Source of the DNA: a virus
Reading direction: 5' to 3' (one strand)
DNA length: 40,871 nucleotides
Virus record (IMG/VR): IMGVR_UViG_3300045988_025559
In this document: positions 5,694 to 24,357 of the stretch, in pieces
Layout: each line of letters starts with the position of its first letter
Position numbering within the stretch: position 1 is the stretch's first letter
Program-made: the position numbers and the translations under genes
Notes under the pieces: model-generated
What the model was told of the DNA's origin: nothing
The model's database searches: none
What the model saw: only the letters and a program-made list of their open reading frames with translations

Positions 5694-7127
5694 ATGAGGG
5701 TAGAGATTCCGAATCAGATCATGGTGACGATCGGAGGGCTGATCTCCCGCGGGGTAAAGGCCGTGGAGGTTACGGACGCGGGGAAGCTGATTTTCACGCT
5801 GACAGACGGCAGCACGATCGATCTTGGCTCGGTCATGGGCCAGCAGGGGCCGAAGGGCGAGACGGGACCGGCGGGGCCGCAGGGGCAGACCGGACCTGCC
5901 GGCGCACAGGGCGAGACCGGCGCGGCAGGCGCGAGCATCACGTCGATCACGAAGAAATCGCAGAGCGGGACGACGGCGACGTACACGATCGCACTTTCGG
6001 ACGGGAAGACATTTGACTTCAACGTCGAGACCGTCAAGGGTGAGAAGGGCGACAAAGGAGACAAGGGGGAAACCGGCGCAACCGGCCCGAAGGGCGAGAC
6101 CGGCGAGCGGGGACCGCAGGGCGAGACCGGCCCCAAGGGTGACCCCGGCGAAAAGGGCGAAACAGGCGCGACCGGCGCGACCGGCCCGAAGGGAGACCCG
6201 GGCCAGACCGGCCCGCAGGGTGAGACCGGCCAGACTGGCCCGGCAGGTCCGCAGGGGCAGAAGGGAGACACTGGCTCCGGATTTGTGGTCAAGGGATATT
6301 ACGGCTCGGTCTCCGCGCTGCAGGCGTCGGTCAAGAATCCGGAGGTAGGAGACGCCTACGGCGTGGGCGCGGCTGCACCTTATGACATTTACATCTACGA
6401 CGGCGTGACGAATGCGTGGGTCAACAACGGACCGCTGCAGGGCGCAAAGGGCGACAAGGGAGATCCGGGCGAACAGGGGCCGAAGGGCGAACCGGGCGAG
6501 ACTGGACCGCAAGGACCTACGGGTCCGCAGGGTGAGACGGGGCCTCAGGGGCCAACGGGTCCGGCCGGAGACAACGGCGCGCCAGGCGCAAATGGCGTGA
6601 CGCCGACGATCGGCACAAATGGCAACTGGTATCTGGGCGAGAACGACACCGGGAAGCCGTCGCGCGGCGAGAAAGGCGATAAGGGCGACAAGGGACCGCA
6701 GGGAGAGCAAGGCGAGACGGGCGGGACCGGCGCGGCCGGAACGACATTCACGCCGTCGGTCGCTGCGGACGGGACGCTCAGCTGGACGAACGACGGCGGG
6801 AAAACGAACCCGGACAGCGTCAACATCAAAGGCCCGCAGGGCAATCCGGGCGAAAAGGGCAACCCAGGAGAGACCGGCGCAAAGGGCGCAGACGGCGTCA
6901 CGCCGACGATCGGCACGAACGGCAACTGGTATCTGGGAGATACCGACACCGGGAAGCCATCGCGCGGAGAGAAGGGCGACAAGGGCGACAAGGGCGATCC
7001 CGGCGCGCAGGGGCCTGCGGGCGCAACGCCCGTCAAGGGGACGGATTACTTTACGGCGGCGGATAAGGCCGCGCTGGTGCAGGACGTGCTTGCCGCGCTG
7101 CCAGAATGGACAGGAGGAAACTACTGA
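5694..7127 (+). CDS. Collagen-like (Gly-X-Y repeat) tail fibre protein
   Basis: AAGGAG RBS. Several long GXY runs (GPKGETGPAGPQGQTGPAGAQGETG...). Two copies of the module GVTPTIGTNGNWYLG.TDTGKPSRGEKGDKGDKG. Confidence 0.9.
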   Translation: MRVEIPNQIMVTIGGLISRGVKAVEVTDAGKLIFTLTDGSTIDLGSVMGQQGPKGETGPAGPQGQTGPAGAQGETGAAGASITSITKKSQSGTTATYTIALSDGKTFDFNVETVKGEKGDKGDKGETGATGPKGETGERGPQGETGPKGDPGEKGETGATGATGPKGDPGQTGPQGETGQTGPAGPQGQKGDTGSGFVVKGYYGSVSALQASVKNPEVGDAYGVGAAAPYDIYIYDGVTNAWVNNGPLQGAKGDKGDPGEQGPKGEPGETGPQGPTGPQGETGPQGPTGPAGDNGAPGANGVTPTIGTNGNWYLGENDTGKPSRGEKGDKGDKGPQGEQGETGGTGAAGTTFTPSVAADGTLSWTNDGGKTNPDSVNIKGPQGNPGEKGNPGETGAKGADGVTPTIGTNGNWYLGDTDTGKPSRGEKGDKGDKGDPGAQGPAGATPVKGTDYFTAADKAALVQDVLAALPEWTGGNY

Positions 7128-9037: not shown

Positions 9038-9346
9038 ATGGACTACACACAGATCATCTCGGCAGTGATCGCGCTCATCAGCGCGCTCGTTTCGGCATTT
9101 CTGATCCCGTGGATCAAGACGAAGATCGACGCGGATAAGCTGCAAACGCTCCGTACCTACGTCGAGATCGGCGTAAAGGCGGCGGAGCAGCTGTACACCG
9201 CGACGGACGGCGCGGCGAAAAAGGCGTATGTTGTGAACTTCCTCGCCGAGAAGGGCATTCAATTTGATGTGGAAACGATCGACAAGCTGATCGAGGCCGC
9301 CGTGCTGCAGCTGCACCACGAGCTGTACGGGAGTGAGCGGGTATGA
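9038..9346 (+). CDS. LL-H-family-like phage holin
   Basis: AAGGAG RBS. One N-terminal TM (IISAVIALISALVSAFLIPWI) is followed by the helical ..VEIGVKAAEQL....GAAKKAYVVNFL..KGI pattern typical of that holin family. Confidence 0.7.
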   Translation: MDYTQIISAVIALISALVSAFLIPWIKTKIDADKLQTLRTYVEIGVKAAEQLYTATDGAAKKAYVVNFLAEKGIQFDVETIDKLIEAAVLQLHHELYGSERV

Positions 9347-10044
9347 GTTACGTTATGAGAGCGTCCGAGCTTGTAAAAAAGCATATCGAAGTCGCGAAGA
9401 ATTACAAGACCGTGTACATGTGGGGCTGCTTCGGATCTCCGGTCACGGATGGGATCATCACTGAGAAGGCAAAACAATACCCGGACTGGTACGACGCCGC
9501 AAAGCAGGCCAGATTCCGCGGGCTGATCGGAAAGGGCTACTTTGGCTTTGACTGCGTGAATCTCACAAAGGGGATCCTGTGGGGCTGGAACGGCAACAAA
9601 AACGCCTACCACGGCGGCGCCCGCTACGCCGGAAACGCCGTCCCGGATGTCTCCGCAGACGGTATGATTGCCAAGTGCAAGGACGTATCCGCGTCCGGCT
9701 GGGACAAGCTCGTCCCAGGAGAAGGCCTGTGGATGCCCGGGCACTGGGGCCTGTACATCGGAGACGGCCTTGCGGTCGAATGCACGCCGATCTGGTACGA
9801 CGGCGCACAGATCACCGCCGTCCAGAACATCGGCACGAAAGCAGGCTATCACGCTCGCAAGTGGCAGAAGCACGGAAAGCTCCCGTGGGTGGACTACGAC
9901 ACGGAAACCGTCGATAAGGCCGTCGAGGACGCCAAGAAGACCATCAAGGCAAAGGCCGGACTTGCGGACAACACGATCAAATATCTCGCCGACTACAAGT
10001 ACGGCGATGATCTCCTGAAAAAACTGGCTGCGGCGATGAAGTAA
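9343..10044 (+). CDS. Endolysin, NlpC/P60-like cysteine peptidase
   Basis: ATGA overlap with the holin gene. Candidate catalytic Cys in GFDCVNLTKGIL and His in PGHWGLYIGDG. Confidence 0.75.
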   Translation: MSYVMRASELVKKHIEVAKNYKTVYMWGCFGSPVTDGIITEKAKQYPDWYDAAKQARFRGLIGKGYFGFDCVNLTKGILWGWNGNKNAYHGGARYAGNAVPDVSADGMIAKCKDVSASGWDKLVPGEGLWMPGHWGLYIGDGLAVECTPIWYDGAQITAVQNIGTKAGYHARKWQKHGKLPWVDYDTETVDKAVEDAKKTIKAKAGLADNTIKYLADYKYGDDLLKKLAAAMK

Positions 10045-10075
10045 GCCCCGCCCGGCGGCGGGCCGAAGGGAGTGA

Positions 10076-10336
10076 CAGCAAATAACTGCGCGGCTGGCTC
10101 TGCCGAAGGAGCTGGAACACCTCACGCGCAGAGACTGGGAGCGCGTCACTGACGAGGGCATACTGGATCAGATCGATCAGCAGATCGTGAAGCTTTATAT
10201 CGTGGGCAGGCTCCCGCAGATGGACGCCGCCGCCGAGATCGGCGTCGACCGCAAAACCATCTCCCGCCGCCTGCCGCACATCTACAATACCGCCCGCCGT
10301 CTGGTAGGGAAAACGGACAAAGAGAAAGCGCCATGA
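10076..10336 (+). pseudogene. Start-less 86-codon ORF encoding a sigma-70 region-4 / ArpU-RinA-like HTH C-terminal half
   Basis: Open from the stop at 10073 to TGA 10334-10336. It reads ..LPKELEHLTRRDWERV..QIVKLYIVGRLPQMDAAAEIGVDRKTISRRLPHIYNTARRL. Third-position GC is high. There is no ATG/GTG/TTG with a usable RBS before codon 38. It ends in a strong terminator. Confidence 0.45.
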
Positions 10337-10359
10337 GCAACGGCTCATGGCGCTTTTTC
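10327..10359. terminator. Bidirectional rho-independent terminator between convergent genes
   Basis: Perfect 12-bp stem agcgccatgagc / gctcatggcgct with loop aacg. A T-run (ttttt) follows on the + side and an A-rich run lies on the other side. Confidence 0.85.
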
Positions 10360-10868
10360 TATGTTCCGGGATTGGCTTTCGGACGATAGTTCGGGTTATA
10401 CGATCTGCATGCGCGCTCCAGCGCGCGGAAGTCGCAGGAGATCTTACAGATGAAGCTGCTCTTTCCATTGACGACATCGTAGTATGTACGATTGGCATGA
10501 TCCAGAATGGCAAGCTTCTGACGGTTGCAATGTTCGATCTGGTTCAGGAGCAGGTTGCGATACTTCACATCCGGCTCTGCGGAAATGTCGTATTCAAGGA
10601 TCGCAGAATCAGGGACAGGGACCATGTTGTTGAAGCCGAGAAGACCGAGGCGGCCACCGTCAAGCTTCAGAATGTGCTTGCCGGGCTTTAGATTGGCATG
10701 GTTTGGCTTCGGGGATTCCATGGGGACGAAGTAACGGAAACTCCCGACAGTGAGAACAACGCCGACATAGGGGCGACGCTGGCCCTTGTTGAACGGGACA
10801 CGGAAGTCACGGGAATGGAGGAAGGAAATATAGCGCTCACTGATGTGGCAGATAAAAAGATTCTCCAA
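10359..10868 (-). CDS. toxN: ToxN/AbiQ-family type III toxin (endoribonuclease), abortive-infection type
   Basis: Peptide ..FICHISERYISFLHSRDFRVPFNKGQRRPYVGVVLTVGSFRYFVPMESPKPNH...LGLLGFNNMVPV.. matches the ToxN/AbiQ signature (KYI.YL...D..V......RPY.G......YF.PL.SPK..H ... NMIPV). TTG start with a weak GGAAAGG RBS. Repeat array and terminator lie immediately upstream. Confidence 0.85.
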   Translation of the reverse strand: MENLFICHISERYISFLHSRDFRVPFNKGQRRPYVGVVLTVGSFRYFVPMESPKPNHANLKPGKHILKLDGGRLGLLGFNNMVPVPDSAILEYDISAEPDVKYRNLLLNQIEHCNRQKLAILDHANRTYYDVVNGKSSFICKISCDFRALERACRSYNPNYRPKANPGT

Positions 10869-10885
10869 GATTCGACCTTTCCGGG

Positions 10886-10916
10886 AAAGAAAAAGCGAGA
10901 CTGCAGAAGTCTCGCT
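10886..10916 (-). terminator. Rho-independent terminator between the repeat array and the toxin gene (minus strand)
   Basis: Stem agcgagac / gtctcgct with a 7-nt loop. On the minus strand it is followed by tttttctttcc. This is the same position as the ToxI-ToxN attenuating terminator. Confidence 0.75.
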
Positions 10917-10939
10917 TTTAGTTGCCCATGATTTTTTAA

Positions 10940-11050
10940 GCCCCTACTTAACGGCAAGGGATTTCCGCTTTTTTGGCTCCCTACTTGACGGCAAGGGATT
11001 TCCGCTTTTTTAGCTCCCTATTTAACGGCAAGGGATCTCCGCTTTCATGG
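10940..11050 (-). ncRNA. toxI: Three tandem 37-nt repeats: candidate ToxI-like antitoxin RNA
   Basis: Units 10940-10976, 10977-11013 and 11014-11050 differ at 4-6 positions. Minus-strand unit: CUAAAAAAGCGGAAAUCCCUUGCCGUCAAGUAGGGAG. There are no spacers and no ORF. The array lies upstream of toxN on the same strand. Confidence 0.75.
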
Positions 11051-11159
11051 GCAGATGATGAACGGCGACGTTCAATCTCTGTAGATTCCTGAAATGGTTG
11101 TGCCGCGGATCGTGCGGTGCCAGATTTCAGGATTCTTTCGCGGATCTCTCCGCACCCCT

Positions 11160-11189
11160 AGTATAAACTCAAAAATGTGTAGAAGTCAA
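11160..11189 (-). promoter_or_regulatory. Sigma-70/SigA-type promoter driving the repeat array and toxN
   Basis: The minus strand reads TTGACT (11189-11184), an 18-nt spacer, then TATACT (11165-11160). This is about 100 nt upstream of the first repeat. Confidence 0.6.
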
Positions 11190-11334
11190 GAGGGGTACTG
11201 GGAAAATTTTTAAGAGGAAAGCATGTCCCACAAATGGTACACAGATATCCCGGAAATGTCCCCCATAAAAACCGGGGAAGCGGTAGACTGAACATAGAAA
11301 CCGGCCGGTTTACTACATTTTCGGAGGGATTTTT

Positions 11335-11832
11335 ATGGAATACGCAAGTAATGGCAAGGGCAATCTGGGTGTGACGCTTGGCGCAATCGGCACCGGTCTC
11401 GGCGCGCTGAACGGCGGTCTCGGCGGCATCCTCGGCGGATTCGGCGCGAATCCTGCTGCGGCTGCGGCTATGGCCGCGGGCGACAGCGACAACCACTTCG
11501 TCAGCCGGTATGAGGCTGGGCAGTCCGCAAGAATCGCGGAGCTGGAGACGGAAGTCAAGCTGCGCGACGCGAACGCTTACACCGACAAGAAAATTCTCGA
11601 GGTGTACCAGTACACGGACGGCAGAATGCGCTCGATCGAAGAGCAGCTTTGCCAGCAGCGCGTTATCAACGCGCAGACCACGGCGAACCTGTCCTGCATG
11701 CAGAACGAGATCGCGACTCTTTCCGGCATGACCAAGACGGTTATCCCCATTGCCAACATCTGCCCGGAACCGATGCAGCGGTATAACAGTTGGACGGCTC
11801 CGACCGGCACAGCGGCGGCTAGCGAGGGCTAA
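11335..11832 (+). CDS. Glycine-zipper / coiled-coil protein, function unknown
   Basis: GGAGGG RBS. N-terminal GNLGVTLGAIGTGLGALNGGLGGILGGFG, a central heptad-like region and conserved Cys residues. Confidence 0.7.
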   Translation: MEYASNGKGNLGVTLGAIGTGLGALNGGLGGILGGFGANPAAAAAMAAGDSDNHFVSRYEAGQSARIAELETEVKLRDANAYTDKKILEVYQYTDGRMRSIEEQLCQQRVINAQTTANLSCMQNEIATLSGMTKTVIPIANICPEPMQRYNSWTAPTGTAAASEG

Positions 11833-11881
11833 ATGCAAGGGGCGGCAATAGCCGCCCCATCCTTAAAGGAGGAAATCTGCA

Positions 11882-12223
11882 ATGACAGTGACGATAGATC
11901 AGGCCATGCGCGGAATTTTGCGCTTTTTTGATACAGTAGCATCCCCACATATGGACGAGGTGCGGTCCTTTGTGGCAGGCGTTGGGTTGTCTTTGCTGGC
12001 AGACGGCAGCAAAGAGCAACTGCTTGTACTGAGAGATAACCCGTGGGTCAAAGCAATGCAAATTATGGATGAGCACGGGGATATTGACATTGACAGGCTC
12101 TATAATAAGGCAAGACCTCGGCTCGATGGACGAAAACTCCCGATAAGGATTCCGTTTATCGGCAAACTAACTTTTGTTGCGGACGATATTGACAGTCTAT
12201 ACAAGTACATTCAGGAGGCATGA
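11882..12223 (+). CDS. Hypothetical protein
   Basis: AAAGGAGG RBS, 113 aa, high GC3. Confidence 0.65.
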   Translation: MTVTIDQAMRGILRFFDTVASPHMDEVRSFVAGVGLSLLADGSKEQLLVLRDNPWVKAMQIMDEHGDIDIDRLYNKARPRLDGRKLPIRIPFIGKLTFVADDIDSLYKYIQEA

Positions 12224-12793: not shown

Positions 12794-14383
12794 TCAATCC
12801 GCGAGGGGATAGAGGGTGACGTGCATGTCGCTGCCGGATTTGGTGTAGGATTTGGTCTGTTTATGGTAGAGGACCTTCTGCAGGACAGTTTTCAGGAGGG
12901 CGTTTTTCTCCTGCGGGGATGCGGCGAGCGGGTAGGTCTCGAGGACGCGGCGGACGGCGGGGGCCAGACGGGCGCGGGCCTGTCTGGCACGGGCCAGCTC
13001 ATGGATCGTGGTTTGGCTTGCCTCGATGCGGTCGACGATGACCTGCTTGTCAGCGGCGAGCGCCTGCGAGCGCTGCAGGAAGATCTCCGGCGTATAGACG
13101 CCGATCTCGACCAGCTCATACGCGCGGGCCTCCTGCGCCTCCAGCTTGGCAAGCTGCTTGCGGTCGGCGGCGATCGAGGACTCGAGCGCGGTGCGCATGG
13201 GCGTGTCATCTGGCGCAGCGGCCTCACCGAGCTCCAGCTCGCGCAGCCAGCCACGCAGAGCATCCAGCACGGCGTCCTCCACATCATCATACCACGCGCT
13301 GACGGTCGTGCAGCCGTAGGAGGGACAAAGTAGCGTATCGCGCCGGCCGCCGGAAGACGGGCGGCGCACCATCACGCGGCCGCACTGGTCGCAGCGGACG
13401 AGCCCAGCGAGGCTCGTCACGGTCCCCCATGCGCCCTTGCCGCGCGGGCTGGCGCTGGAATAGCTCAGAGCGACGGCCTTGTCGTACTGCTCCTGCGAGA
13501 TCAGGCCGTCGTGCAGCCCTTTATAAAGCTTCAGATCCTCCTGCCGGGTGCGGGGACGGCTGACGACGACAGCGCCGTCGACAATGCGCTTCGTCTCCGG
13601 TCGCCCGCCGGACTTGATCCAGCCAGCATTTGCCGGATTGCGCAGGATATCCAGCACAGAGTCCGCGCGCCAGAGGCTGCCGGAGTTGGTCGGGACGCCG
13701 AGGCTGTTCAGCCGCGTGGAGATCGCCTTCGCGCCGATGCGCGCGCAGCCATCGCCGGTGTACCAGTTGTAGATCTGCTGCAGGACGGGGGCCTGCTCCG
13801 GGTGCGGGACGAGCTTATAACCCTTGTCGTTCGGCAGCTTCTCGCGCAGCCAGCCGAAGGGTGTTTTGCCGGAGATCCACTTGCCTTCGCGTAAAGAAGC
13901 CTCCTTGCCGCGCGACAGGCGGCGCTTGATGGTGTTGTACTCGCGCCGGGACATAAAGAGGCCGAACTCAAAGTATTCCTCGTCCATCTCGTTGTTCGGG
14001 TCGTAGGTCTTGTTCGGCGTGATGATGCGGGTGTCGGAGTATTTAAAGGTCTGGGCAATAATGCCCTGGTCGATGGTGTCGCCGCGCGCCAGACGCTCGA
14101 CCTCCATGACGATGACGCCCGCATAGTTCCCGGTCTCAACGAGCTGCAGGACCTTCTGCACCTCCGGCCGGACGGCAATGGAGTCGCCGGTCACGACCTC
14201 TTCGCAGATCTCCACGACGTTCAGCCCGCGGCTTTCGGACAGCGACAAAAGCGCGGCCCGGTGCCGTTTGAGCGTGTCGGTCTGGCCGAGGGCTTCGGCC
14301 TCCATGTCCTTCCGGGACTTGCGCAGGTAAATGATGTACTGCGCGAGCGGGTCGGCGATTTTCCAGGTAGATGTAAATTTCAT
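12794..14383 (-). CDS. int: Large serine recombinase (phage integrase)
   Basis: N-terminal resolvase motif YIIYLRKSRKD..., a recombinase domain, the Zn-ribbon CDQCGRVMVRR...LLCPSYGC and a C-terminal coiled coil. Confidence 0.92.
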   Translation of the reverse strand: MKFTSTWKIADPLAQYIIYLRKSRKDMEAEALGQTDTLKRHRAALLSLSESRGLNVVEICEEVVTGDSIAVRPEVQKVLQLVETGNYAGVIVMEVERLARGDTIDQGIIAQTFKYSDTRIITPNKTYDPNNEMDEEYFEFGLFMSRREYNTIKRRLSRGKEASLREGKWISGKTPFGWLREKLPNDKGYKLVPHPEQAPVLQQIYNWYTGDGCARIGAKAISTRLNSLGVPTNSGSLWRADSVLDILRNPANAGWIKSGGRPETKRIVDGAVVVSRPRTRQEDLKLYKGLHDGLISQEQYDKAVALSYSSASPRGKGAWGTVTSLAGLVRCDQCGRVMVRRPSSGGRRDTLLCPSYGCTTVSAWYDDVEDAVLDALRGWLRELELGEAAAPDDTPMRTALESSIAADRKQLAKLEAQEARAYELVEIGVYTPEIFLQRSQALAADKQVIVDRIEASQTTIHELARARQARARLAPAVRRVLETYPLAASPQEKNALLKTVLQKVLYHKQTKSYTKSGSDMHVTLYPLAD

Positions 14384-14412: not shown

Positions 14413-14907
14413 TTATACGGGAACAAAGGATGCAAGCGCGGAGGCGCGAAGCCAGCCGATATTGGGATTACAAAGGTCGACAAGGAGCGCCAGGAGCGCG
14501 ATGAGAACGATGCACACCAGCACGCCGATCAGAATATCCTTGCGCCGCGCCTCGACGGACTTATGGCGGATGATCTGTTCCTGCTTGGAAATGATCGCGT
14601 TAGCATGCTTGAGCCGCAGCTCAAGCTCGGCGATGCGCGGCATTTTATCCGGCTGGTCCAGCAGCACGGCGCTGTCTGTGTCCATCGCGTCCGCGATCCG
14701 GTGCAGAGCGGACGAAGGGACGTCGCAGCCACGCTCATAGCGCGAGAGGCTGGCGACGGAAACGCCGGAGGCATCGGACAGCTCGTTCAGCGTCATGCCG
14801 CGAGACAAACGCTCTGAACGGATGCGATTTTCACAGGTTTCCAAGGTTTCCACGATCCTTTCCAAAAATGAGAATCCAGAAAATGCGGATTTCTCAAAAA
14901 ATCTCAT
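14413..14907 (-). CDS. XRE-family HTH protein with a C-terminal transmembrane anchor
   Basis: HTH NRIRSERLSRGMTLNELSDASGVSVASLSRYERG, a coiled region, then ILIGVLVCIVLIALLALLV. It ends 30 nt upstream of int. The start is uncertain (no clear RBS, possibly leaderless or internal). Confidence 0.7.
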   Translation of the reverse strand: MRFFEKSAFSGFSFLERIVETLETCENRIRSERLSRGMTLNELSDASGVSVASLSRYERGCDVPSSALHRIADAMDTDSAVLLDQPDKMPRIAELELRLKHANAIISKQEQIIRHKSVEARRKDILIGVLVCIVLIALLALLVDLCNPNIGWLRASALASFVPV

Positions 14908-23535: not shown

Positions 23536-24357
23536 ATGCAATGGGAACAGGGATGCTTATTCGACGACAACCCGGAATACGATGCGTTCACGTCGAAATT
23601 CAAACCCAAAAAGACAACGGACGACTGCTACACGCCACCGCTTGTTTATGAGGCGATCCGGGATTGGGCGTGCAGTGAATATGGGATTGACCCGGCATGC
23701 ATCGTGCGGCCATTCTATCCGGGTGGGGACTATGAACGTTTTGACTATCCGGACGGCTGCGTCGTGCTGGACAACCCGCCTTTTTCGATTCTTTCAAAAA
23801 TCTGCGAATTCTACATAGACAGAGGGATTGCGTTCTTTCTTTTTGCGCCATCGCTCACGGCGTTCTCCAGCCGATCAGTTGTGCTGAGGATGAACCATAT
23901 CATTTGCGATGCAGTCATCACGTATGAAAATGGCGCAGTCGTTCACACGGCGTTTGTAACAAGTTTCGGAGGAAACATCGCGCAGAGCGCCCCGACGCTC
24001 AGAAAAGCGGTCGAGCGGGCGATGCGGCAGATTAAGGCGGAGACAAAAAAGGAGCTGCCGAAATATACATATCCGGACCATGTGCTGACGACAGCCATGC
24101 TGCAGAAATATGCGAACTACGGTATAGAGTTTGCGGTTAAGCGCGAGGACTGCACGTACGTTGAAAAGCTGGACAGTCAGCGCGCAGCGGGAAAGAAAAT
24201 CTTTGGTGGCGGGCTGCTGCTGTCAAACCGAGCTGCCGCCGAGAAAGCTGCCGCCGAGAAAGCTGCCGCCGAGAAAGCTGCCGCCGAGAAAGCCGCCGCG
24301 CACGTCTGGGAGCTGTCTGAATGTGAAAAGGGCATCATTGCGAGCCTCGGGAAATAA
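23536..24357 (+). CDS. Second DNA methyltransferase-like protein (DNPPF motif) with a C-terminal (AAAEK)n tail
   Basis: AAAGGAGGG RBS. DDCYTPPLVYEAI...VLDNPPFSILSKI..F....IAFFLFAP parallels the TP / NPPY / LLPA layout of the Dam-family gene at 18640. Confidence 0.65.
   Translation: MQWEQGCLFDDNPEYDAFTSKFKPKKTTDDCYTPPLVYEAIRDWACSEYGIDPACIVRPFYPGGDYERFDYPDGCVVLDNPPFSILSKICEFYIDRGIAFFLFAPSLTAFSSRSVVLRMNHIICDAVITYENGAVVHTAFVTSFGGNIAQSAPTLRKAVERAMRQIKAETKKELPKYTYPDHVLTTAMLQKYANYGIEFAVKREDCTYVEKLDSQRAAGKKIFGGGLLLSNRAAAEKAAAEKAAAEKAAAEKAAAHVWELSECEKGIIASLGK
24232..24300 (+). repeat. Perfect 15-bp tandem repeat, 4.6 copies (gctgccgccgagaaa)
   Basis: Units 24232-24246, 24247-24261, 24262-24276 and 24277-24291 are identical, followed by a partial unit. 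They encode AAEKA repeats in frame. Confidence 0.9.

Follow-up and report, generated by a model that had tools for sequence, protein, structure and literature searches.

A probable type III toxin-antitoxin (ToxIN) module carried as a moron by a temperate phage of an Oscillospirales gut bacterium

A temperate phage of an Oscillospirales gut bacterium very probably carries an intact type III toxin-antitoxin module (ToxIN, of the ToxN/AbiQ type), a moron of 857 bp that includes a predicted promoter. The module lies in IMG/VR record IMGVR_UViG_3300045988_025559, and the whole stretch of 40,871 nucleotides that we analyzed is called the window here. Among abortive-infection and RNA-antitoxin systems, ToxIN is a textbook case. 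Oscillospirales are plentiful in the human gut, yet few have been brought into culture. The known ToxIN family gains another member, a large Oscillospirales-phage clade, and this is not a novel kind of system. On the minus strand, a sigma-70-like promoter sequence is followed by a structured leader, three 37-nt repeats, an intrinsic terminator, and an open reading frame (ORF) of 169 amino acids that begins with TTG. The features are listed below.

10364-11220, minus strand: the whole cassette, a discrete 857-bp insert with promoter, leader, toxI array, terminator, and toxN coding sequence
11160-11189, minus strand: predicted sigma-70-type promoter, with TTGACT (11189-11184), 18 nt, and TATACT (11165-11160)
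11139-11154, minus strand: 5'-terminal leader hairpin, UGCGGA-GAGA-UCCGCG, beginning 6 nt past the -10 box and conserved in the clade
11084-11135, minus strand: extra long hairpin of the leader, GAAUCCUGAAAUC ... CCAUUUCAGGAAUC, predicted by both the MFE and the centroid fold
11052-11081, minus strand: second conserved leader hairpin, CAGAGAUUGAACG-UCGC-CGUUCAUCAUCUG
11045-11053, minus strand: 5' arm of a 9-bp helix around the array (the closing helix), UGCCCAUGA
10935-11045, minus strand: toxI antitoxin array of three 37-nt units, from TRF and covariance-model matches
11045-11009, 11008-10972, and 10971-10935, minus strand: the three toxI units, in register, 37 nt each
10923-10931, minus strand: 3' arm of the closing helix, UCAUGGGCA
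10886-10919, minus strand: predicted intrinsic terminator in the gap between toxI and toxN, with a 12-bp stem, a 5-nt loop, and a UUUUUCUUU tail
10876-10882, minus strand: Shine-Dalgarno-like GGAAAGG, read from the sequence
10359-10868, minus strand: toxN, a predicted endoribonuclease toxin of the ToxN/AbiQ family, 169 amino acids, TTG start
10325-10356, both strands: predicted bidirectional terminator hairpin with a 14-bp stem, -28 and -31 kcal/mol on the two strands

The insert leaves out the last 5 bases of the ORF (10359-10363, stop codon included). The order of promoter, repeats, terminator, and toxin is that of the published type III locus definition (PMC3401426). The repeats (37 nt, 3.1 copies) lie just upstream of the toxin gene on the same strand, and their length falls inside the 31-46 nt range of ToxI (PMC3401426). 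By the published criteria for such loci (PMC3401426, PMC8860590), the cassette is classed as type III. A sequence-only reading of this DNA had proposed a ToxIN/AbiQ-like system, and the toxin family match, the layout, the repeat pseudoknot, and the phage setting all agree with it in silico.

That reading had pointed to ToxN/AbiQ signatures in the 169-aa protein (RPYVGVVL, YFVPMESPKPNH, and LGFNNMVPV), all of which are present in the ORF, and profile searches against this family were significant. The protein matched the PADLOC AbiQ model (4.7e-40) and Pfam PF13958 (ToxN_toxin; E = 1.2e-44, 152.7 bits, cut-off 25), the latter in an alignment that takes in positions 3-159 of a 159-position profile. 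Sequence matches in the PDB were to ToxN and AbiQ chains only (4ATO at 9e-23; 7D8O, 4GLK, and 2XD0 at ~1e-11). The AF2 model of the protein (pLDDT 91.8, pTM 0.87) predicts the ToxN fold, with a twisted antiparallel beta core, surrounding helices, and a long kinked helix. Foldseek aligned the model to ToxN_Bt (TM 0.81), ToxN_Pa (0.80), ToxN_Ec (0.78), and AbiQ (0.77), and to MazF/Kid with a TM of 0.30 or less only. Homology to CptN is unsupported, as the Foldseek match to 4RMO (TM 0.55, E = 4.6e-3) falls far under the ToxN group. Pfam gave ToxN_toxin alone, no TenpN structure or profile match turned up, and a search of NCBIfam with the toxin returned no match. The RefSeq plasmid relatives of toxN bear the name 'type III toxin-antitoxin system ToxN/AbiQ family toxin'.

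The homologues of toxN number at least 763 at E <= 1e-5. Across 36 relatives at ~60% identity, 48 alignment columns are invariant, which indicates purifying selection. The active-site equivalents R32, E51, S52, and K54 align with K33, T52, S53, and K55 of ToxN_Pa/Ec. AbiQ is active though Leu occupies the position equivalent to Thr52. The loop of toxN reads PMES where ToxN_Pa/Ec have PLTS, so that a Glu takes the place of the catalytic-site Thr. We know of no earlier case of a Thr-to-Glu change at the Thr52 position, and with this residue catalysis may differ. E. coli clusters 4 and 5 are already known to have the Lys-to-Arg change at the Lys33 position (PMC8860590).

The weak ribosome binding site and TTG start of the sequence-only reading were recovered, with GGAAAGG 7 nt ahead of the TTG at 10868. 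Relatives at 60-70% toxN identity have ATG exactly at the position of this TTG, after GGAAAGGTCGAA, which shows that the start assignment is right; the motif is kept ahead of ATG in L034, L035, and L048.

The antitoxin array was found both by TRF (37-nt unit, 3.1 copies at 10933-11045, score 184) and by a covariance model of the unit. In the 40.9-kb window, this model gave three matches only, at 57 bits each, and the next best reached 10.5 bits (E = 0.45). The number and length of the repeats are as first read, and their placement at 11050-10940 shifts to 11045-10935. The unit consensus is AAAGCGGAAAUCCCUUGCCGUUAAGUAGGGAGCUAAA, and unit 3 has a changed 3' end (GGGGCTTAAA vs GGGAGC[TC]AAA).

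Each unit is predicted to fold as a two-stem H-type pseudoknot, with positions 4-7 pairing with 18-21 (S1) and 12-15 with 27-30 (S2). In 59 distinct units from related loci, aligned with one N hand-placed in loop column 22 of the 36-nt units and so with a slight lean towards the proposed structure, 92.8% of the stem cells are paired, compared with 78.7% in shuffles (0/500 reach 92.8%) and 33-58% in controls with slid partners. This alignment replaced a plain MAFFT version, in which the 36/37-nt length difference was put at the 3' end and stem 2 was mis-registered. Both stems carry compensatory changes among the 59 units. Pair 5-20 is CG in 51, AU in 8, and broken in none; pair 12-30 is CG in 47 and UA in 12; pair 14-28 is CG in 44 and UA in 14; and pair 15-27 shows four pair types. 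RNAalifold finds S2 unaided. At the unit junction, A2, A3, and A36 never vary, and the conservation of A37 is 90% or higher. These conserved adenines match the A-rich cleavage sites of characterized ToxN family members (AA/AU, A/AAAA, and A/AAA; PMC5086642).

Array and toxin gene are strictly linked. Of 80 sister-phage loci, 17 have toxN, and it is these 17 and no others that contain the repeats; in 44 toxN loci, all covariance-model matches (123/123) lie directly upstream of toxN and on its strand. Related loci nearly always have three units. No degenerate or orphan repeats were detected in the leader, in the rest of the window, or in toxN-less sister phages. Across the window, no Rfam family reached its gathering score, and a search of 10300-11300 at E <= 10 gave noise only, for instance miRNA and sRNA models that fell on the terminators. 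The absence of a relevant Rfam family even at E <= 10 is in line with the earlier remark that the repeat sequence looked distinct from ToxI. Because ToxI sequences are system-specific, the Rfam negative is no argument against ToxIN membership.

We considered whether the repeats might act as DNA, as iterons or operator sites that adjoin a ToxN homologue by coincidence. Tandem direct repeats near promoters are often protein-bound, and short repeats of 10-11 nt are present farther upstream in relatives. However, two RNA helices are kept by compensatory base changes, the A-tract at the unit junctions is conserved, and the 37-nt unit is within the ToxI range (PMC3401426). The strand and place of the repeats are also fixed relative to toxN, past the promoter and ahead of the terminator. 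The chance that they are DNA elements is in our judgment close to nil.

We also considered whether the module is an inactive relic in which the toxin or the antitoxin no longer works. Glu51 in place of the Thr listed as catalytic in ToxN_Ec/Pa, the weak TTG start codon, and the imperfect 3' end of unit 3 could all be signs of decay. However, E51 is invariant in 121/121 aligned clade members, as are the flanking YFVP-ES-P residues, and AbiQ works with its Leu at this position. Over 30 near-identical phage contigs have an unbroken toxN ORF, its conservation reaches down to 50% identity, and compensatory changes preserve the RNA stems. Low translation is, moreover, expected of the toxin in a toxin-antitoxin system. 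We judge a relic extremely unlikely.

The promoter sequence that had been read as TTGACT-18-TATACT at 11189-11160 is present, with 10/12 consensus matches, and relatives have TTGNNN ... TATAAT at its place, ahead of the same 5' hairpin. Unlike in classic type III loci, a leader of ~108 nt separates the promoter from the array. A ~100-nt leader had been noted before; its presence holds, but it is a conserved structured element and not a plain spacer. The leader fold has -40 kcal/mol (z = -4.1). Its 5'-terminal hairpin is paired in 96/96 cells, and 3/6 pairs show compensatory changes, in hand-picked sequences whose count leans towards structure (variants GCGGA:UCCGC, GCAGA:UCUGC, GCAGG:CCUGC, and GUGGC:GCCAC). 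The second hairpin recurs at the same place in relatives as GUGA..GAAC...GUUC..UCAC. The extra long hairpin is confined to the phage group from which the window comes and does not appear in the leaders of L034-L073.

In the MFE and centroid folds, 11045-11053 pairs with 10931-10923 to close the array. This helix covaries (GCUCGUG:CACGGGC in L034/L048 and GCCCAU:AUGGGC in L035/L037) and is strong within the window's sub-clade. As a clade-wide feature it was rejected: across 27 distinct loci, cognate flanks (-10.8 kcal/mol) pair barely better than non-cognate ones (-9.0 kcal/mol), which makes the closing helix a lead and not a finding. The conserved RNA around the array (the 5'-terminal GNRA hairpin, the second hairpin, and the closing helix) might form a functional layer undescribed for type III systems, with the closing helix circularizing exactly the three-unit precursor, but we think this quite unlikely. 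If true, each transcript would be pre-organized by the helix for a single closed 3:3 ToxIN complex. In some sub-clades, the 3' arm of the helix shares bases with the terminator stem or with the Shine-Dalgarno sequence of toxN, and there array integrity would also be coupled to read-through into toxN. With the invariant catalytic-loop Glu added, the Oscillospirales-phage clade would then count as a mechanistic variant of ToxIN and not merely another member.

A rho-independent terminator had been placed ahead of the toxin gene at 10916-10886, and we find it at 10919-10886. Its arms are AAAAGCGAGACT and AGTCTCGCTTTT, followed by a T-tract (-16.2 kcal/mol, z = -3.3), and a GC-rich hairpin with a T-run stands at this position in all related loci inspected. 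A simple consensus scanner missed the terminator because the A/T extension of the stem consumes the T-run. The sequence-only reading had also ended the cassette with a bidirectional terminator. The hairpin at 10325-10356 exists, but it is the terminator of the convergent plus-strand HTH gene, used by toxN and located outside the insert, and sister phages have it at cassette-free sites.

The phage setting is that of a moron. Immediately downstream of the cassette come a holin and a lysin-like gene, and genes for a serine integrase and a cI-like repressor are found 2-4 kb upstream. The site itself, flanked by the lysis genes on one side and the integrase on the other, holds variable cargo. Where sister loci extend more than 1.5 kb past the lysin, toxN is present in 13/70 cases and absent in 57/70. 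In the toxN-less sisters L133, L143, L145, and L147, the equivalents of window positions 10000-10363 and 11221-11354 are contiguous, so the junctions of the insert are precise. The proposed location in the lysogeny/moron block of a temperate phage is borne out by the nearby integrase, cI-like repressor, and holin and by the presence or absence of the insert among sisters. We rejected hth49 as a part of the system, since it is kept in 57/57 toxN-less sister loci. The alternative cargo genes at this hotspot were examined as known defense genes and gave no PADLOC matches and almost no Pfam matches.

Carriage at such a site raises the question of what the module does for the phage. Its main role could be addiction or stabilization: upon prophage loss, short-lived toxI would disappear and longer-lived ToxN would kill or arrest the cell, with phage defense secondary or absent. 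Toxin-antitoxin systems in general stabilize mobile elements (PMC12548467), and one report describes ToxIN_Bt as stabilizing plasmid pAW63 during sporulation (PMC4615649). The loci L034-L042, in which toxN is 60-70% identical, keep the cassette at the syntenic spot, and hth49, orf113, and DUF7841 have co-diverged, which suggests long-term retention in the phage lineage. However, a serine-integrase prophage is seldom lost and would leave little for post-segregational killing to act on. The 57/70 close sister phages without the cassette thrive, and a swap-in/swap-out cargo spot is typical of host-benefiting morons. We regard addiction as the main role as rather unlikely, and the two roles are not mutually exclusive.

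A part in the lytic programme or in counter-defense is very unlikely. Here, ToxN would be an induced host-shut-off RNase, or toxI would be a decoy against host ToxN. The pseudo-ToxI of Pectobacterium phage PhiTE neutralizes host-encoded ToxN. The lysis genes adjoin the cassette, the closing helix and the stabilizing 5' hairpin suggest selection for plentiful precursor RNA, and phage-borne type III systems have been termed functionally unexplained (PMC12283969). However, none of the 80 sister loci has an array without its cognate toxN, which makes a pure decoy unlikely. The cassette shares its orientation with the integrase and repressor, opposite to the late genes, and it has its own predicted sigma-70-type promoter, which fits expression in lysogeny. 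The phage genes also show no depletion of A-runs, the putative ToxN sites (AAAAA occurs 65 times on the plus strand vs 58.7 expected). This lack of depletion also weighs against the defense reading, since it does not account for self-sparing.

Most likely, the cassette guards the lysogenized host against other phages, a defense role that we assign by analogy. The mechanism is drawn by homology with ToxIN_Pa, ToxIN_Bt, ToxIN_Ec, and AbiQ. In a lysogen, the promoter at 11189-11160 would give a transcript of the structured leader and then the three 37-nt toxI repeats. The terminator at 10919-10886 would end most transcripts and a minority would continue into toxN, which would be poorly translated from its TTG start and modest Shine-Dalgarno sequence, leaving the antitoxin RNA in large excess. 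ToxN, as a sequence-specific endoribonuclease, would cleave the precursor at every unit boundary, within the conserved A-tract (...AAA/AAAG...). The freed 37-nt pseudoknot would remain bound across two ToxN monomers and block their active sites in a closed, inactive complex, most likely of 3 RNA : 3 protein, which the near-constant three units per array would fit. Should transcription of the locus drop, for instance when an infecting phage shuts off the host, the labile RNA would not be replaced. Free ToxN would then cut both cellular and viral RNAs at A-rich sites, and the infection would be aborted.

The large ToxN clade, with dozens of phage contigs in IMG/VR and no fewer than 763 proteins at E <= 1e-5, is a plug-in moron in Oscillospirales temperate phages. 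PHROG 9764, labelled 'unknown function', gains an annotation, and we supply a covariance-supported antitoxin RNA model where Rfam has none. Sister phages with and without the cassette offer a natural series for studying prophage-encoded superinfection defense. The understanding of type III systems is unchanged by this cassette. Its clade-specific details (the active-site Glu, the conserved 5'-terminal leader hairpin, and the array-closing helix) are modest. Phage-borne toxIN has been on record since 2012 (PMC3401426), with one example only in the literature before the 2025 tenpIN survey (PMC12283969).

The closest solved relative is ToxIN_Bt of B. thuringiensis pAW63 (4ATO; sequence E = 9e-23, fold TM 0.81). 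Its antitoxin is a pseudoknot cleaved in an A-run (A/AAAA, PMC5086642), as we infer here. ToxIN_Bt has the same succession of promoter, about three repeats, terminator, and toxin, with an array of 2.9 x 34 nt, and shares the Arg at the Lys33 position within the RPYVGV motif. It differs in protein sequence (~29% identity), in its repeat (37 nt here, unrelated in sequence), in its active-site loop (PLTSRN vs PMESPK here), and in its carrier, a conjugative plasmid instead of a temperate phage moron. The cassette has in addition the ~108-nt structured leader and the array-closing helix, and to our knowledge neither has been described for ToxIN_Bt.

ToxIN_Pa (P. atrosepticum pECA1039; 2XD0/2XDB/2XDD) and ToxIN_Ec (7D8O) likewise belong to PF13958 (TM 0.80 and 0.78) and share the SPK of the active-site loop (PLTSPK vs PMESPK here). 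Both work by abortive infection, and their repeats are processed to single pseudoknots in a 3:3 heterohexamer (PMC5086642, PMC8860590). In contrast to these two, the toxin here has Glu for Thr52 and Arg for Lys33 and lacks the Tyr29-containing insertion; ToxIN_Pa has 5.5 x 36-nt repeats (PMC3401426) where the cassette has 3 x 37 nt, and both systems are plasmid-carried in Proteobacteria.

AbiQ/antiQ of L. lactis (pSRQ900, 4GLK; PADLOC AbiQ 4.7e-40, TM 0.77) is also carried by a plasmid and has ~26% identity to toxN, with 2.8 x 35-nt repeats of different sequence. Both proteins keep the Ser of the P-x-x-S loop, and neither has Thr at the Thr position (Leu in AbiQ). Ser51 is the one residue of AbiQ whose mutation abolishes RNase activity. 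The published precedent for a system carried by a Firmicute (pro)phage is the toxIN of Clostridium phage D-1873 and the C. botulinum p1BKT015925 plasmid prophage (Blower 2012), with 38% protein identity, although its carrier is a large plasmid-type converting phage, whereas the genome here is an integrating, siphovirus-like one of ~40 kb.

The 169-aa protein encoded on the minus strand is, beyond reasonable doubt, a ToxN/AbiQ toxin. An HMM search bore out this call of the sequence-only reading, covering nearly the entire Pfam ToxN_toxin profile (E = 1.2e-44), and the PADLOC AbiQ profile matched at 4.7e-40. Only four solved structures are related by sequence: ToxN_Bt (4ATO, 9e-23), ToxN_Ec (7D8O), AbiQ (4GLK), and ToxN_Pa (2XD0). 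An AlphaFold2 model built from 36 homologues was confident (pLDDT 91.8) and superposed on these four with TM-scores of 0.77-0.81, versus only 0.55 for CptN, which argues against CptIN membership, and <= 0.30 for MazF/Kid. Sequence and predicted fold matches thus place the toxin in the ToxIN family rather than CptIN or TenpIN. The PHROGs family phrog_9764, labelled 'unknown function', matches the toxin over its full length (E = 6e-33), appears to be ToxN/AbiQ, and could be annotated so.

The catalytic residues described for ToxN_Ec/Pa, Lys33, Thr52, Ser53, and Lys55, align to R32, E51, S52, and K54 of the window toxin, and the Lys-to-Arg change is known in E. coli clusters (PMC8860590). The Thr-to-Glu change is a clade signature. 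Among 121 aligned sequences (120 homologues and the window), E51 (121/121), S52, P53, and the YFVP before them do not vary, and M50 (120), K54 (118), P55 (110), and N56 (119) are nearly so. ToxN_Pa, ToxN_Ec, and ToxN_Bt carry the catalytic-site Thr at this position, whereas AbiQ has Leu and depends on the neighboring Ser. Because Glu is invariant in the clade and AbiQ relies on the adjacent Ser, we treat E51 as probable variation, not a defect. The E51 codon is at 10716-10718, and the loop YFVPMESPKPNH is near-invariant in the clade.

All elements of the ToxIN-like layout proposed from sequence alone, including the promoter, three 37-nt repeats, and the terminator before the toxin, were recovered on the minus strand of 10200-11400.

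Elements of the toxIN cassette (coordinates, strand, feature)
11189-11160, minus, predicted promoter TTGACT-18-TATACT (consensus scan, 10/12 matches)
11154-11139, minus, 5' leader hairpin UGCGGA-GNRA-UCCGCA, directly after the -10 box
11135-11084, minus, extra ~52-nt hairpin between the 5' and second hairpins (window's own group)
11081-11052, minus, second leader hairpin
11053-11045 with 10931-10923, minus, putative array-closing helix of UGCCCAUGA with UCAUGGGCA, the 9-nt stretches that directly flank unit 1 (5' side) and unit 3 (3' side)
10933-11045, minus, toxI tandem repeat, 37-nt unit x 3.1 (Tandem Repeats Finder, score 184, 89% matches)
11045-11009, 11008-10972, 10971-10935, minus, in-register toxI units
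10919-10886, minus, intrinsic terminator, 12-bp hairpin then UUUUUCUUU (-16.2 kcal/mol, z = -3.3)
10359-10868, minus, toxN ORF, 169 aa, TTG start with GGAAAGG 7 nt before it
10325-10356, both strands, hairpin downstream of toxN, 14-bp stem, strong fold on each

The proposed TTG is the true toxN start, because in relatives with 60-70% identity the corresponding codon is ATG, likewise preceded by the GGAAAGGTCGAA motif. The downstream hairpin, read earlier as a bidirectional terminator of the cassette, does fold strongly on both strands but belongs to the neighbor and is borrowed by the insert.

We surveyed the repeats at loci encoding toxin relatives of 49-100% identity, 56 from IMG/VR phages and 17 from GTDB genomes. 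Every IMG/VR locus except L043 has a 36-37-nt tandem array upstream of its toxin; the L043 contig stops 123 nt before toxN, and R1, a covariance model built from the toxI unit, finds a unit at the contig edge. Tandem Repeats Finder detected such an array in 14/17 genome loci, and two others, L061 and L073, also proved to contain units. Between array and toxin lie ~50-180 nt, and a terminator hairpin follows the array. In the window, R1 matches the three units and nothing else, and among 80 sister-phage loci it matches exactly the 17 toxN carriers. All R1 matches (123/123, in 44 toxN loci) are directly upstream of toxN on the same strand. Three units per array is the near-constant rule, and a few arrays contain two; this number would fit the 3:3 RNA-protein complexes formed by ToxIN_Pa, ToxIN_Bt, and ToxIN_Ec (PMC5086642, PMC8860590).

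We aligned 59 distinct units, placing a single N by hand in the loop of 36-nt units, and tested an H-type pseudoknot against 500 shuffles and slid-partner controls. Positions 4-7 pair with 18-21 in stem 1 (GCGG/CCGU), and 12-15 with 27-30 in stem 2 (CCCU/AGGG). With the N so placed, 92.8% of cells were paired, compared with 78.7 +/- 1.0% in shuffles (0/500 reached this value) and 33-58% in slid-partner controls, and the covariation score was 0.385 versus 0.120. Pair 5-20 changes from C-G to A-U in eight units and is broken in none; it switched in at least two independent events, since one A-U unit (L067.1) sits alone in an otherwise GCGG array. Switches occur in 12 units at pair 12-30, in 14 at pair 14-28, and in 31 at pair 15-27, the last with all four Watson-Crick types. 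RNAalifold recovered stem 2 without help, and no conserved pairing of columns 11-31 was found in this alignment. No Rfam model recognizes the toxI RNA in the window, even at a loosened threshold, which is no surprise, since each system has its own ToxI sequence. A conserved A-tract marks the boundary between units (A2, A3, and A36 invariant; A37 >= 90%) and matches the A-rich cleavage sites of characterized family members (AA/AU, A/AAAA, A/AAA; PMC5086642).

The leader (~108 nt from promoter to array) is structured (-40 kcal/mol, z = -4.1), and its architecture is kept throughout the clade. In 16 hand-picked sequences the 5' hairpin is 100% paired, with compensatory changes in 3/6 pairs. Given how RNA decays in Firmicutes, this 5'-terminal hairpin probably protects the toxI precursor from 5'-end-dependent decay. 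In the nearest sub-clades the array-closing helix is backed by covariation (GCUCGUG:CACGGGC, GCCCAU:AUGGGC), and across all 27 distinct loci cognate flanks pair only marginally better than non-cognate flanks; we regard the helix as a candidate element. Some sub-clades (L039, L044, L061, L069), but not the window, have UCACCUCCUUU at the leader end, which we take to be identical to the 16S rRNA 3' end (anti-SD). It can base-pair either with the toxI-toxN terminator, in its 5' arm (AAGGGG...), or with the GGAGG SD of toxN, which would allow antitermination or RBS occlusion. Short repeats also occur outside the cassette and may be operator sites: ATGTCCC x 2 in the orf165 promoter region of the window (11221-11300), and 10-11-nt tandem repeats 100-200 nt upstream of the array in relatives L031/L032, L037, and L049-L056 (GGGACATTTAT x 3.7, TGCATTTGTG x 3.3, AACTGGCCGT x 3.7-5.5).

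The window derives from a phage of Firmicutes in the human gut. Sequences that match it at 80-95% identity include records titled 'Bacteriophage sp., human fecal samples', which lack annotation. Near-identical toxN genes occur on 20-67-kb IMG/VR contigs and in Oscillospiraceae or Clostridiales MAGs, and remoter copies in MAGs of Faecousia, Butyricicoccus, Acutalibacteraceae, Dysosmobacter, and Avoscillospira.

Gene order around the cassette
upstream of the holin, tail genes, the last a collagen-like fibre protein
9038-9346, holin
9343-10044, lysin-like ORF
10187-10336, small HTH ORF
between the HTH ORF and the unknown ORFs, opposite strand, toxIN cassette
between toxIN and the serine integrase, three unknown ORFs, one a DUF7841 protein
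12794-14383, minus, large serine integrase
14413-14907, minus, cI-like repressor

The nearby integrase and repressor agree with the temperate lysogeny/moron setting first suggested, and the cassette is indeed an insert. The 80 closest phage loci with a lysin include 70 that extend > 1.5 kb beyond it, and toxN is present in 13/70 and absent from 57/70. In 'empty' phages, window 10000-10363 adjoins 11221-11354, which makes the cassette a clean 857-bp insert (10364-11220). It brings its own predicted promoter and borrows its neighbor's terminator, as is classic for a moron.

The HTH ORF (frame 10076-10336, plus strand; 49 aa from GTG 10187) has weak Pfam HTH_28/Sigma70_r4 matches and is convergent with toxN, ending inside the shared terminator. 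Its frame is open for 37 codons further upstream (LPKELEHLTRRDWERV...) without ATG, GTG, or TTG, so the true start may be non-canonical. Since 57/57 of the toxN-less sister loci listed retain it, this ORF belongs to the phage rather than to toxIN. A cargo hotspot spans 10337-12173, from this gene to the DUF7841 gene, and in sister phages (among L074, L078, L091, L097, L110, L133) it is empty or holds toxIN or other, unrelated ORFs, such as a minus-strand 291-aa and 260-aa gene pair (L110, L097) or a 236-aa multi-zinc-ribbon/HTH protein (L091). These cargo genes had no PADLOC match and almost no Pfam match, and are candidate defence or moron genes. In remoter phages the syntenic site is occupied by toxIN alleles that have diverged. 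L048 (IMGVR_UViG_3300030040_000147) has a cI and serine integrase 97% identical to those of the window, with a toxIN of 63% identity and another stem-2 sequence on the opposite side of the lysogeny genes, which argues that alleles move between sites and phages. Elsewhere, the collagen-like tail protein (5694-7127, plus strand) has long Gly-X-Y tracts (GPQGETGPAG...) broken by globular segments, and this accounts for the many 9-45-nt GC-rich tandem repeats at 5846-6997. A near-perfect 15-nt x 4.6 tandem repeat (98% matches, AGCTGCCGCCGAGAA) lies at 24231-24299, where a long ORF on the minus strand seems to be spurious.

In a lysogen, constitutive transcription, attenuation at the terminator, and weak translation would give excess toxI. 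Cleavage of the precursor by ToxN would fall within the A-tract at the unit junctions, and the 37-nt pseudoknots would then lock ToxN. If transcription stops, for example on superinfection, freed ToxN would degrade RNA; in E. coli ToxIN the trigger is loss of transcription on superinfection (Guegler and Laub 2021, as cited in PMC12283969). We prefer to interpret the pay-off as lysogen defence. Prophage stabilization is a less likely alternative, and a function in the life cycle of the phage itself is less likely still. A-runs are not depleted in the phage genome, giving no sign of self-sparing.

The nearest characterized system is ToxIN_Bt, with ~29% identity and repeats of 34 nt x 2.9 compared with 37 nt here. 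The features that define a type III ToxIN locus (Blower 2012, PMC3401426; Manikandan 2022, PMC8860590) are all predicted in silico, so the cassette belongs to this known system. A phage-borne toxIN was noted in Clostridium phage D-1873 in 2012 (Blower 2012, PMC3401426), a 2025 survey stated that, until its own tenpIN examples, this was the sole phage-borne type III system on record (PMC12283969), and Fusobacterium phage phiFN37 (GenBank) already has one annotated. The clade is a large, previously undescribed gut-phage group of ToxIN, and its locally new features are an active-site loop reading PMES, a near-constant three units per array, a structured leader, and the putative closing helix.
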